Shown in pieces: positions 4,327-8,165 of a stretch of DNA of 26,565 nucleotides. The notes below the pieces were generated by a model, which did no database searches, was not told where the DNA came from, and worked only from the letters and a program-made list of their open reading frames with translations. The DNA lies in the IMG/VR virus record IMGVR_UViG_3300020043_003864, positions 1 to 26,565 of that record. One strand, 5' to 3'. This DNA comes from a virus (lineage: Duplodnaviria; Caudoviricetes). Each line of letters opens with the position of its first letter. Position 1 is the stretch's first letter. Made by a program: the position numbers and the translations under genes.

Positions 4327-5376
4327 TTAAAATGGGGATTTAGTTTCTGTTTCAAACTCAAAATTATTTGTTCCCAAATTGGGAAACTTTTCTACTCCTG
4401 GGAATTGATGGCTTTTAACATTTGCGTTTGCAAAGTAATCGAATCCGTCTTTACCAATGTACCGGTTGCGTTTTCTGTTAAAATCAATTGTAATCTCGAA
4501 AGGTATTCCAACCAGCTTTTGTTTCTTAATCTTATCCGTCTTAATTATTACCGTTGTATCGTTAGGGTCGGTTGCTCTATTCGGTCTCCAAACGCTTATT
4601 GTATTGTCGGTCGAATCTGCAAAGGTACCCCCCCCCTTTATTTGGTAGAGACTTGGAGGAGGATAATTGCCGTCCTTCTCTTTTCGTGGTGTTGTTTGGT
4701 GCATGACCAAGTGATAGCTTACATTATTCTTTCGGGTAAAATTAATTCTATCCATCATAAAGCGAGAGGCATACAAATGCTCTTGCTCTCCTGGACTCAT
4801 CTCGTGGCGGATTTTTATGTACGGGTCAACAATTACCGCGTTAACTCCTCTCTCCCAAACTAGAAACTCAAAGACGCTTTCAATCTGTTCTATCCTAAAG
4901 TCAGGTACTCCGTTTTTTTCAGGATAAACAAAAAAGAAATTATCCTTTACCAAATCAAAGGCATTTAAATACTCCTCTTCGCTAAGGTCAAAATTCTTGT
5001 AAGCTCGGTCAGTACTCTTGCCAGTTATCGTGTGTATAATGTCATCAAAAAACTCGTCAGGAGGATAATTTTCAGGCGAGAAAAAAGCAAACTTCCAACC
5101 TTCGTTTATTGCCTTTAGGACGCAAAGAAAAATAAGGAATTGACTTTTACCTTCGTTGTTGTAACCCGTCCACAAGTTAAACTCTCCAGCCTTCCAAGAC
5201 CACATCTTATTTTGCAATCCTCCGCTAGTTACCTGGTCTATATCTCTTACATAGGTTTTGCTTCCAGCCTCTTTGCCTTTACGGAAATTGTTTAGCATTG
5301 ACTCGCGTTGGCCAGCAAATGTCTTAATTGATGCCTCGCAAAAATCTAGGTCGAACTCTTTGTTATGTTTTTTCAT
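4327..5376 (-). CDS. SF4 (DnaB/T7 gp4/Twinkle-like) replicative helicase, no primase domain
   Basis: Walker A TGYNNEGKS, FFSPE, VIVDPY, LVMH, L..IKGGGTFADSTDN. Confidence 0.85.
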   Translation of the reverse strand: MKKHNKEFDLDFCEASIKTFAGQRESMLNNFRKGKEAGSKTYVRDIDQVTSGGLQNKMWSWKAGEFNLWTGYNNEGKSQFLIFLCVLKAINEGWKFAFFSPENYPPDEFFDDIIHTITGKSTDRAYKNFDLSEEEYLNAFDLVKDNFFFVYPEKNGVPDFRIEQIESVFEFLVWERGVNAVIVDPYIKIRHEMSPGEQEHLYASRFMMDRINFTRKNNVSYHLVMHQTTPRKEKDGNYPPPSLYQIKGGGTFADSTDNTISVWRPNRATDPNDTTVIIKTDKIKKQKLVGIPFEITIDFNRKRNRYIGKDGFDYFANANVKSHQFPGVEKFPNLGTNNFEFETETKSPF

Positions 5377-5675
5377 TCAAAAAAGTATTTGTCAATTTCA
5401 GTTTTAAGTTCGTTGTATTTGCCTTGCTTCTTGGCTAGGTCTGTAAACCATTGCTTCTCAAATATCCTATTTTGCCTTGCCTCTTCTTGCAATGCTAATT
5501 TAGTACCTTTTACCTCGTAATCTTGTAAATTTATAATATTGACGTACTTTTTTTGTAGAGCGTACAACCTTTTTAGGTTTACTTCCATTAAGGCCCAATT
5601 CTTAGTTTGCTGAGCTTGTACAATCAATCCCCAAACATTTCTATTTAGGTCGTTTAATTCTTTTATCTCTTTCAT
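5373..5675 (-). CDS. hypothetical coiled-coil protein between initiator and helicase
   Basis: 100-aa helical ORF coupled to the helicase gene. Confidence 0.65.
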   Translation of the reverse strand: MKEIKELNDLNRNVWGLIVQAQQTKNWALMEVNLKRLYALQKKYVNIINLQDYEVKGTKLALQEEARQNRIFEKQWFTDLAKKQGKYNELKTEIDKYFFE

Positions 5676-5676
5676 C

Positions 5677-6387
5677 TTACCACCAGTTGTCTTCTATTGT
5701 TGATTTAGCGTATTTAGGAGGCTCAATTTCTTTTGTGCCTTGATTGCTGGTTAAACTATTTTTCAAGTAAAGATTAAATGAGTTCTGAGCTTTGCTTATT
5801 GTCATTGCTTCTCCTTCCTTCAATATTTTCCATTTAGTGAAATAGTCTTTTACCTGGCTTTCACTTATTCCGTGTATTTCTTGCATTCTTAAAAAGTAAG
5901 GTCTTTGCATTGGCTTCTCCTTTGCCATCTCTTGAGTAATCTCATCCAAAGAGATAAACATTTCTTTACTTATTTCCTTCTCTAATTCTTTTACTTCTTT
6001 AGTTGGTTTCACTTGCGTTTCACTTGCGTTTCGTGTGCGTTTCACTTTCGTTTCACTATCGTTTCGCTCACCTTGGTAAGTGTCATATTTACAGATAGTT
6101 ATCCGTGTCGTAACCGTTTCGCTTTTTAACACAATCATTGAATCTTTCTCCAGCATTTTTAAAAACCTCAAAACTTTAGATTTGTTAATTTTCCATCTAT
6201 TTGCCCAGGTTTCATAAGAATAAACAACCTCTCCTCGGTTGATTTCTATAAGCTGGTTTTTAATTAAAACCTTCTTTGGTTCAATGTTGGCTTGCATCAA
6301 AATGTCCAACCACCATTTTAAATATTCGGGTTTATCCCAAATCCAATGGTTTGATAATTGCCTGTGTACCTTAATCCATCCGCTCAT
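5677..6387 (-). CDS. phage replication initiator / replisome organiser (lambda O-like role)
   Basis: N-terminal GWIKVHR...W...YLKWWLDILMQAN...RGE...winged-helix pattern, internal tandem iterons, upstream of helicase. Confidence 0.8.
   Translation of the reverse strand: MSGWIKVHRQLSNHWIWDKPEYLKWWLDILMQANIEPKKVLIKNQLIEINRGEVVYSYETWANRWKINKSKVLRFLKMLEKDSMIVLKSETVTTRITICKYDTYQGERNDSETKVKRTRNASETQVKPTKEVKELEKEISKEMFISLDEITQEMAKEKPMQRPYFLRMQEIHGISESQVKDYFTKWKILKEGEAMTISKAQNSFNLYLKNSLTSNQGTKEIEPPKYAKSTIEDNWW
6006..6071. repeat. six tandem 11-bp iterons (GTTTCACTTGC consensus), putative origin of replication
   Basis: Units start at 6006, 6017, 6028, 6039, 6050 and 6061. An AT-rich pyrimidine tract lies adjacent at ~5955-6000. 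Confidence 0.8.
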
Positions 6388-6485
6388 AAGTAAAATAAAA
6401 AAGGCCCTATCGTGTCGGAGTCGATGGGCCTTGGGTGAATTTCACCTATGAAAGATTCAAGGCTCCGACCTCTTAAATCTCTCAT
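6384..6485 (-). CDS. putative 33-aa leader peptide coupled to the initiator
   Basis: MRDLRGRSLESFIGEIHPRPIDSDTIGPFLFYL*. Its TGA overlaps the initiator ATG (ATGA). Confidence 0.35.
   Translation of the reverse strand: MRDLRGRSLESFIGEIHPRPIDSDTIGPFLFYL
6397..6432 (-). terminator. intrinsic terminator/attenuator immediately upstream of the initiator ATG
   Basis: AAGGCCC-ATCG / CGAT-A-GGGCCTT stem ending in a U6 run. Confidence 0.7.
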
Positions 6486-6488
6486 TTA
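6397..6488 (-). ncRNA. structured cis-regulatory leader RNA (three hairpins, kissing loops, terminator)
   Basis: 14-bp stem 6448-6485 with two G-U pairs on the minus strand, small hairpin 6434-6446, terminator 6397-6432, complementary loops GUCGGAG/CUCCGAC. Confidence 0.7.
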
Positions 6489-6493
6489 ATATA

Positions 6494-6521
6494 CAAATAT
6501 AAACCTTTTCGATTTAACCAA
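6494..6521 (-). promoter_or_regulatory. promoter TTG-N17-TATATTTG driving the leader RNA and replication operon
   Basis: -7 element at 6494-6501, TTG at 6519-6521. Confidence 0.7.
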
Positions 6522-6663
6522 CCAGCGAGCGCTTCTTTAGTTGAAAATAAATACAACCGTAAGAAAGTCCCATTTCTTGAGCTATAACCTTAATTTGCTT
6601 TCTGTCTTGCCAGGCCTCAAATATTAGCTCCTTTTGATAATCAGTTAGATTTCGTCCCCTCAT
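6514..6663 (-). CDS. small helix-turn-helix protein (49 aa, not in ORF track)
   Basis: MRGRNLTDYQKELIFEAWQDRKQIKVIAQEMGLSYGCIYFQLKKRSLVG. IA.EMGLS...IY is an HTH pattern. Confidence 0.75.
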   Translation of the reverse strand: MRGRNLTDYQKELIFEAWQDRKQIKVIAQEMGLSYGCIYFQLKKRSLVG

Positions 6664-7832: not shown

Positions 7833-8165
7833 TTATACTTTTTTCTGAATCATGTTTTTAGCCTCTGCCACATCCAGCAACTTTTTAACCTTGCGAAATT
7901 CTAGGTTTTGGTCTTCTGCTATTTCTCGGCAGCAATAGCCGTAAGTTGCCAAAGTTAAAATCCTACTAATTTGATGGTCGGTTAAAATCTGAAATATGTT
8001 TTCGTCCATCAATTTGCGAGGGTAAATCTCGTGAAGCTTCATTTTAGTGTAAAGTAGGTAACCAACTTTTTGGTCATCTAATCCGAGCGTTTTGGCTATC
8101 TTTTTTCGGGTTAATCCCTCAAGGTAAAGGGATTTAATTTGCTGGGTTATTTCATCAAATTCCAT
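7833..8165 (-). CDS. protein with two tandem HTH motifs
   Basis: LYLEGLTRKKIAKTLGL and YGYCCREIAEDQNL. Confidence 0.7.
   Translation of the reverse strand: MEFDEITQQIKSLYLEGLTRKKIAKTLGLDDQKVGYLLYTKMKLHEIYPRKLMDENIFQILTDHQISRILTLATYGYCCREIAEDQNLEFRKVKKLLDVAEAKNMIQKKV

Follow-up and report, generated by a model that had tools for sequence, protein, structure and literature searches.

The window analyzed here is a 26,565-nt stretch of a caudoviricete phage record. On its minus strand, the genes follow one another in the order ERF and Gp157 recombination genes, small HTH genes, a replication initiator, a 100-aa ORF and a DnaB-like helicase. An element of three hairpins (6501-6397) stands ahead of the DNA-replication genes on the same strand. 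It had been recognized in a sequence-only reading, and all the coordinates given there for the promoter box, P1, P2, P3 and the loops proved correct when they were rechecked against the sequence (Table 1). The array of 11-bp repeats about 330 nt downstream of the terminator is a probable replication origin, internal to the initiator gene in the manner of lambda O. The 49-aa HTH-like ORF had a homolog just upstream of the element in seven of nine relatives, and it is a candidate regulator of the promoter at 6501-6494. Farther upstream, a 110-aa ORF with two HTH motifs (7833-8165, minus strand) gave sub-threshold matches to Sigma70_r4 and Phage_antitermQ (E = 0.015), and its homologs were also found in seven of the nine relatives. 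At the contig end (26514-26565, minus strand), there was a strong terminator hairpin. The hairpin and its U tract explain a weak L20_leader match (E = 0.18) at the same place.

Table 1. Features of the three-hairpin element and of the genes around it in the window
Feature	Position	Strand	Evidence or remark
HTH-like ORF, 49 aa, stops 12 bp before promoter box	6514..6663	-	HTH_28 E = 0.0054, below cut-off
Promoter box TATATTTG, Bacteroidota sigma-A-type -7	6494..6501	-	predicted
Predicted short RNA, ~93-95 nt, P1-P2-P3-U tract	6395..6489	-	ends predicted
P1 hairpin, 14 bp including two G-U, 10-nt loop	6448..6485 (arms 6485-6472/6461-6448)	-	fold
L1 kissing code GUCGGAG (family consensus GU-nnn-AG)	6463..6469	-	exact complement of L3
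P2 short hairpin, in P1-P3 linker	6434..6446	-	-5.1 kcal/mol
P3 intrinsic-terminator-type hairpin and U tract	6397..6432	-	-15.3 kcal/mol, predicted terminator
L3 kissing code CUCCGAC, inside P3 loop	6414..6420	-	exact complement of L1
Replication initiator / DnaD-like, 236 aa, first gene past terminator	5677..6387	-	phrog_2514 E = 1.8e-32; also phrog_186, 428, 270
About six 11-bp direct repeats within initiator gene, iteron-like	6003..6068	.	families D1 and D2, spacing 11
100-aa ORF, operon gene two	5373..5675	-	no Pfam or PHROG match
DnaB-like / primase-helicase-type helicase, operon gene three	4327..5376	-	phrog_239 E = 8e-28, phrog_19

Between 7957 and 4627, the box at 6501-6494 is the single TAnnTTTG on the minus strand. 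The Bacteroidota box is described as lying at -12 to -5 relative to the transcription start (PMC9723704), and this placement puts the predicted start at about 6489. The promoter type also points to a Bacteroidota host. The short RNA predicted to begin there would double as the 5′ leader of a read-through mRNA. Folded at its predicted length of 95 nt, it reached -36.2 kcal/mol (z = -5.65), and none of 200 shuffles equalled it. P1 had been described as containing two irregular pairs that are G-U on the minus strand only; its fold energy was -15.8 kcal/mol on the minus strand versus -7.5 kcal/mol on the plus strand. When P1 was folded alone, a rival pairing inside its loop was favoured over the open state by about 1 kcal/mol. 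P2 has 1 nt on either side in the window. P3 comprises 11 bp with a 1-nt bulge and a 9-nt loop, followed by U6-A-U4, and the U tract ends 9 nt before the initiator ATG (6387). A GC-rich hairpin followed by a U tract in one orientation is what is expected of an intrinsic terminator, and P3 is predicted to be one. It did not appear in a simple terminator scan, in which the loop limit was 8 nt. The apical part of P3 is weak by itself (-0.8 kcal/mol). The exact complementarity claimed for the two loops (GTCGGAG at 6469-6463 and CTCCGAC at 6420-6414 in DNA letters) was correct, and an L1-L3 match of at least 7 bp arose in 147 of 200,000 shuffles.

We then looked at relatives. An initiator-based search gave 71 viral loci, in which the element was detected by its promoter, loop, complement and terminator. 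It was present in 37 of the 38 closest loci, and the one miss had no upstream DNA. The next 14 loci included 12 positive ones, which carried a related two-hairpin form, and the last 19 included none. Among 32 aligned members, 87% of the cells were paired and 26 of the 34 pairs showed two-sided changes. None of 500 shuffles matched the observed pairing and covariation, and structures slid along this alignment paired in 34-56% of the cells. P1 had two-sided changes at all of its 12 aligned pairs, with 93.5% of the cells paired, and P2 was the least conserved helix (75.6%). P2 was nevertheless retained, with three or more base pairs in 62 of 63 cores and a median energy of -3.7 kcal/mol. Counted over 137 elements, the first eight bases of the tail held at least seven U in 128, where the search pattern demanded four, and the box stood 16-36 nt upstream of the L1 code in 126. 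In the P1 cells, 152 G-U pairs favour the sense strand. One P1 position was C-A in 64 of 100 cases; it would be a wobble on the opposite strand and speaks against a sense-strand RNA.

Kinship inflates the covariation counts of this alignment, and seven short-loop rows were shifted by one column. Because of these two problems, we ran scans that were blind to the loop. Re-alignment with the model left the one-column shift, and our counts for the kiss (the L1-L3 pairing) rest on the loop-blind scans and on the comparison of codes. The loop-blind patterns specified either the terminator stem only or that stem together with the P2 end, and put no constraint on the loop. The counts refer to unique matches with an upstream complement of at least 7 nt, after dropping the one to four matches per scan that had no upstream DNA. 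Among the matches listed for pattern A, the complement was found in 33 of 34 with a promoter box versus 3 of 68 without one. The listed matches of viral scan C gave 60/60 with the box and 1/9 without, and those of viral scan D gave 20/20 with the box. Pattern B (3/8 with the box and 3/93 without, among the matches listed) and the metagenome scan (21/28 and 1/72, likewise among those listed) were weaker, and we counted them against the attenuator reading proposed below. The metagenome misses that we inspected resemble unrelated terminators admitted by the loose promoter expression. In the genome scan, none of the 115 matches listed had an upstream complement. Covariation between the loops of relatives, which had been suggested as a check of the sequence-only reading, was present. 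As the complement accompanies the promoter box in the loop-blind scans and the codes covary, the kiss is under strong selection. The L1-L3 complementarity is real and goes beyond chance.

Seven codes were found, each perfectly paired between L1 and L3 and each following the pattern GU-nnn-AG. Their counts among 121 leaders were 35, 26, 24, 20, 12, 3 and 1. All of the 92 positive cores from the loop-blind scans read GU-nnn-AG; the outer pairs (GU...AG with CU...AC) were constant, and the three central pairs of the seven varied freely. The code of L023 is one compensated pair away from that of the window. Duplex energies ranged from -8.9 to -10.7 kcal/mol for cognate loops and from -6.8 to +1.7 kcal/mol for non-cognate ones, and the seven codes are mostly orthogonal. 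Five of the seven were each shared by two or more initiator families. On a tree built from the upstream flanks, the code changed 42 times and the P1 haplotype also 42 times, compared with 54 changes after shuffling; the element is poorly predicted by this tree, probably as a result of mosaicism. Because the codes switched no faster than the P1 haplotypes, the tree gave no evidence of diversifying selection on the code.

The fixed-code viral scan gave 85 matches; the hairpin filter retained 63, of which 62 had the promoter box. The first gene after the element belonged to the phrog_2514 type, Lin1244_N (DUF4373), DUF6291, HTH_36 or phrog_6251, and further members stood ahead of BT4734-like primases. 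Sometimes a passenger gene came first (HNH, PD-(D/E)XK-type or a small ORF) and the cassette was still in front; in L023, L036, L082, L089, L132, L137, L149 and L277, an initiator-type gene followed the passenger. Since the first genes vary while the cassette stays, the element marks the start of a replication operon rather than one protein. The sequence-only reading had taken it for the gate of the replication initiator. Its place at the head of the replication operon is indeed fixed, but it is not tied to one initiator, as several initiator families and a primase family follow it.

In the window and in each of nine relatives, model R1 found a single copy. Tape-measure homologs were present in just three of these nine relatives, whose structural modules differ. 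In the relatives G006-G013, the early and replication arm was about 60-95% identical to that of the window and the structural modules were different; initiator family and RNA code were freely reassorted among them. A tyrosine integrase (PF00589) was absent from all 10 carrier records, seven of which are at least 90% complete. No recombinase, repressor peptidase or ParA was present among the 53 ORFs of at least 75 aa in two complete-looking relatives. In bacteria, the element was seen on one MAG contig (Ekhidna), ahead of an HTH_36 initiator, and model R1 found none in 151 sampled genomes of one Bacteroidota family. The fixed-code genome scan gave 122 matches, of which eight passed the hairpin filter and only one (L235) looks real. 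Locus L278 (E = 0.0018) was rejected as a member, having two hairpins and no kiss. None of the cultured phages matched the DNA of the element, and their best initiator matches were less than 60% identical. Two other genes of relatives were recorded. In the early region of one (L520:7390-7746, plus strand), a gene product of 119 aa contains an RNA polymerase alpha C-terminal domain (PF03118, E = 7e-14) and is a possible transcription modulator. A 32-kb relative (L519:2652-3416, plus strand) has a TET-associated glycosyltransferase (PF20691) adjoining the terminase region, which hints at possible DNA modification.

The two-hairpin form, found upstream of the initiator in L039-L052 and also in L056 and L067, has a short P1 joined by a single-stranded linker to a longer terminator, whose AGUA/GAA-type internal loop we take to be loop-E-like. 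Model R1 at E 0.001 did not detect this second form. About 6-7 of 11 loci checked had a repeat of the code at -7 or -10 relative to the start codon, and its three versions covary. This third copy was present in L039, L046, L049, L040, L056 and L041, and absent from L042, L043, L045, L051 and L067. In the members with three copies, the kiss would also free the start codon. There were two hybrids (L088:880-983, plus strand, and L094:728-832, minus strand), which combine a long P1 and the code of the window with the longer terminator and have no TAnnTTTG box. They precede homing-endonuclease genes (GIY-YIG/NUMOD3), after which comes a 5′-3′ exonuclease or a ribonucleotide reductase. We infer that the two- and three-hairpin forms are one superfamily with an optional translational layer.

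Several other functions of the window sequence were tried and rejected. For a distant target in trans, an extra GTCGGAG lies at 23672-23666, just before the start of a tail gene, and it differs in a relative with the same code. Counts of the own code in nine relatives had no clear excess beyond the two element sites and were taken as chance. The 3′ end of P1 together with P2 can pair with the start region (6456-6380, minus strand, -14.5 kcal/mol); this is the best fold of the read-through RNA and hides the ATG. As a family feature it was rejected, for only L002 shares it and permutations gave helices as strong in 202/300 and 73/300 cases. A leader peptide was rejected too: the 33-aa ORF of the window (6485-6384) is not conserved, and an ORF crosses the element in 20 of 62 cases with mixed start codons. 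For an antisense RNA, an antisense TAnnTTTG occurred in 15 of 137 elements, scattered, and no A run that could give an antisense terminator tail followed P1. A third copy of the seqC kind was absent from the 62 elements, where no 7/7 match lay near the start and the own code matched no better than foreign ones. Finally, an inverted repeat acting as DNA or an invertible segment does not fit, as all aligned members have the same orientation and the G-U pairs favour RNA.

We propose, by analogy with the guanidine-IV riboswitch, that the element may be a cis kissing-loop attenuator, in which the kiss would hinder completion of the terminator and permit partial read-through into the initiator-helicase operon. 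In our judgement, this has an even chance of being right. A cis switch between termination and read-through is what the sequence-only reading had also suggested, and it is common to that reading and our best one. Host RNA polymerase would start near 6489, and P1 and P2 would fold first. In 60 of 63 cores, the distance from the end of L3 to the sixth U was 15-16 nt, a value partly set by the search patterns. A polymerase covers roughly this length, and L3 would therefore appear when the polymerase enters the U tract. It would leave the polymerase only at that point, with the 5′ arm of P3 still single-stranded, and L1 could catch it. Finishing the zipping of P3 would take away the slack of the linker, and termination would have to break the kiss or melt P2. 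The race between kiss and terminator would fix the fraction of read-through, and with it the supply of initiator and helicase and the level at which the iteron array is transcribed. Candidate inputs that might shift the race are polymerase speed, Mg2+, a phage protein and the short RNA itself. Early transcripts coming from upstream would run into the same terminator.

Some observations bear on the steps of this attenuator. The U tract was 4-20 nt from the start codon across the family and an internal promoter box occurred in 1 of 137 elements; because of these two facts, the operon genes would need read-through. No conserved nested or strand-swap anti-terminator was seen in 63 cores, so that the kiss is the one conserved contact with the terminator. 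The cost of forbidding P3 in these cores had a median of 8.3 kcal/mol (range 0-14.4). The kissed P1 and P3 would span about 58-81 Å for bends of 90-180 degrees, a crude estimate with an assumed geometry. Because P2 has a single nucleotide on either side in the window, the kiss, P2 and the full P3 probably cannot coexist there. The linker had a median of 19 nt (range 12-21) and most members are slacker than the window; the steric argument against a bent compact fold that keeps the kiss is crude, and the modelled geometry is borderline in members with longer linkers. The low cost of melting P2, given its median energy, also weakens the argument. In guanidine-IV, as far as the accessible parts of the two reports describe it, the full stem is impeded by the kiss onto the terminator loop, and as the stem grows, the linker becomes shorter and the kiss is strained (PMC11611296, PMC7736828). 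We hold the attenuator at the level stated because its direction is borrowed from guanidine-IV and the geometry is borderline where linkers are longer.

The same parts can be read in other ways. The terminated 93-nt RNA might be a self-targeting small RNA, whose free L3 would pair in trans with nascent L1, block the cis kiss and force termination, so that the replication genes would be under negative feedback and phages sharing the code would be excluded, as in P4 CI or IsrK. We think this unlikely, and it would be compatible with the cis attenuator as its input. The promoter and terminator predict an abundant short RNA with both loops, the codes are largely orthogonal and most of them are shared between initiator families, and the terminated IsrK leader is reported to act in trans on its own read-through mRNA (PMC4825925). 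Against it, codes and P1 haplotypes changed equally often on the flank tree, the 62 elements had no third target copy, the YUNR motif occurred in L1 in 0 of 137 elements, and the carriers, with no tyrosine integrase in 10 records, look non-temperate. Because no integrase, recombinase, repressor peptidase or ParA was found in the records searched, no prophage state that needs immunity is evident. It is rather doubtful that the element goes as far as an RNA-only, address-coded governor of replication in phages without lysogeny genes. There, the nascent kiss would allow transcription, and the terminated RNA would block the kiss in trans, shut the operon after an early burst and exclude co-infectors with the same code. 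If this were true, the terminated RNA, which can no longer kiss itself after completion of the terminator, would accumulate, and at least seven exclusion groups would be defined.

It is also conceivable, and in our opinion quite improbable, that the element is a stand-alone structured small RNA, in which the kiss would be its own tertiary fold or would join molecules hand in hand into dimers or rings, for stability or a separate function. In phi29, pRNA forms rings by intermolecular loop-loop pairing. Transcription would then enter the replication genes by simple leakage or with the help of a phage antitermination protein, for which the upstream 110-aa ORF with its sub-threshold Phage_antitermQ match might be considered. 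A bent compact fold is compatible with our estimate of the geometry, and P2 is retained though short. However, the element always lies directly before the start codon of an operon for replication or DNA metabolism, with one copy per genome; it is common to phages with different structural modules, and the window and nine relatives gave no conserved distant target. We see little probability in the opposite direction of the kiss, by which L1 would pre-organize or stabilize the terminator or shield the terminated RNA, and the operon would be turned on by a factor that disrupts the kiss. The apical part of P3 is weak alone, and loop-loop pairing might stabilize the stem that it caps; this was raised for guanidine-IV, where experiment gave the reverse (PMC7736828). 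P3 as a whole is strong unaided. In the relatives with three copies of the code, L3 released from a broken kiss would be able to cover the start codon, and this would oppose an ON state. A riboswitch that senses a ligand, such as a nucleotide or ion, on a platform of the guanidine-IV type is very improbable. It would explain the same kiss-onto-terminator-loop topology, the position before non-homologous genes of one pathway and the constant outer pairs of the kiss. However, three of the seven kiss pairs vary freely, unpaired bases of loops and junctions were at most about 75% conserved, and the two-hairpin class swaps the entire kiss sequence. In addition, one bacterial MAG contig was positive, against none of the 151 Bacteroidota-family genomes and none of the 115 genome matches listed.

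The sequence-only reading could not assign the element to a named family, and this still holds for Rfam 15, in which the window, a 361-nt region, 20 related loci and 20 kb of a relative had no relevant match (best E = 0.74 at the element, far below the gathering score; zero hits for the 20 loci and the 20 kb). Rfam includes the c4 family RF01695 (PMC2864571), and the accessible part of the motif list in the same paper held nothing matching. We found no description of the element in the literature within our search coverage, outside which most subscription papers fall. However, an automated catalogue of 2023 may already list part of the family, as compared by its table descriptions alone (PMC10690425). 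According to these descriptions, DNAVirus_4859, _704 and _187 are motifs of 49-106 nt from mostly or wholly freshwater IMG/VR phages, at most 25 bp upstream of DUF4373 genes, and DNAVirus_4859 also precedes HTH_36 and Phage_rep_O genes (PMC10690425). They appear there as automated entries with one to three covarying bases, flagged as having no terminator and given no function (PMC10690425).

Two precedents named in the sequence-only reading did not hold as memberships. Regarding P4 immunity, the CI RNA (seqA/seqB/seqC) is similar in having short complements in one leader and premature termination before replication genes, as far as it is described in PMC4825925. Unlike P4 CI, the three-hairpin family has two copies only (no third in 62 elements), a terminator within the RNA itself and carriers without an integrase (10 records). 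The likeness to P4 CI is closer in part of the related two-hairpin class, by its covarying third copy at the start codon. Regarding IncI/IncB plasmids, their rep control involves a leader peptide coupled to the initiator. The phage element, in contrast, has no conserved antisense promoter or leader peptide, given the scattered antisense boxes and the minority of leader ORFs counted above. The accessible text on IncI-alpha/IncB repZ describes a similar long-range pairing, made through a loop and lying ahead of a replication initiator. There the pseudoknot turns on translation, and the opposite-strand Inc antisense RNA blocks it (PMC8383071), whereas the partner in the phage element is a terminator loop.

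The IsrK RNA of Gifsy-1 is another relative in design. It is described as having a promoter and a short RNA that stops at a Rho-independent terminator, past which part of the transcription continues into phage regulatory genes, and its short form could act on the long form (PMC4825925). IsrK has its pairing partner in a downstream ORF and acts by translational coupling (PMC4825925), whereas the complement in the phage element is internal, from loop to loop. The phage element also differs in having no conserved downstream target or leader ORF.

Guanidine-IV (GGAM-1 / mepA), absent from the sequence-only reading, is a closer mechanistic precedent than P4 or IncI/IncB. In the accessible descriptions of it, an operon is likewise headed at its 5′ end by an intrinsic terminator whose loop pairs with that of an upstream hairpin, there is likewise no classical strand-swap anti-terminator, and a steric block of the outer terminator pairs was proposed (PMC7736828, PMC11611296). 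According to the same sources, its ligand-binding bases are more than 97% conserved and it precedes guanidine exporters of the sugE/mepA type, whereas the phage element has seven variable kiss codes and precedes initiators, primases and nucleases in Bacteroidota-type phages. The phage element also has the extra hairpin P2 in its linker, unlike guanidine-IV, and its flanking unpaired bases, at most about 75% conserved, gave no sign of a ligand pocket of highly conserved loop bases. The topology is carried before replication genes by many freshwater Bacteroidota-type phages, which form a natural variant series for loop-loop control of termination. In small phages that have no lysogeny genes, it may reveal how the initiator is metered, and it could provide orthogonal RNA parts for Bacteroidota genetics. 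The element is a real RNA element, a variant of kissing-loop terminator control that is akin to the guanidine-IV platform and falls outside guanidine-IV, P4 CI and IncI/IncB. Experiments on guanidine-IV have established the kiss to a terminator loop, and here the same topology is combined with a swappable 7-nt code and shows no sign of a ligand pocket.
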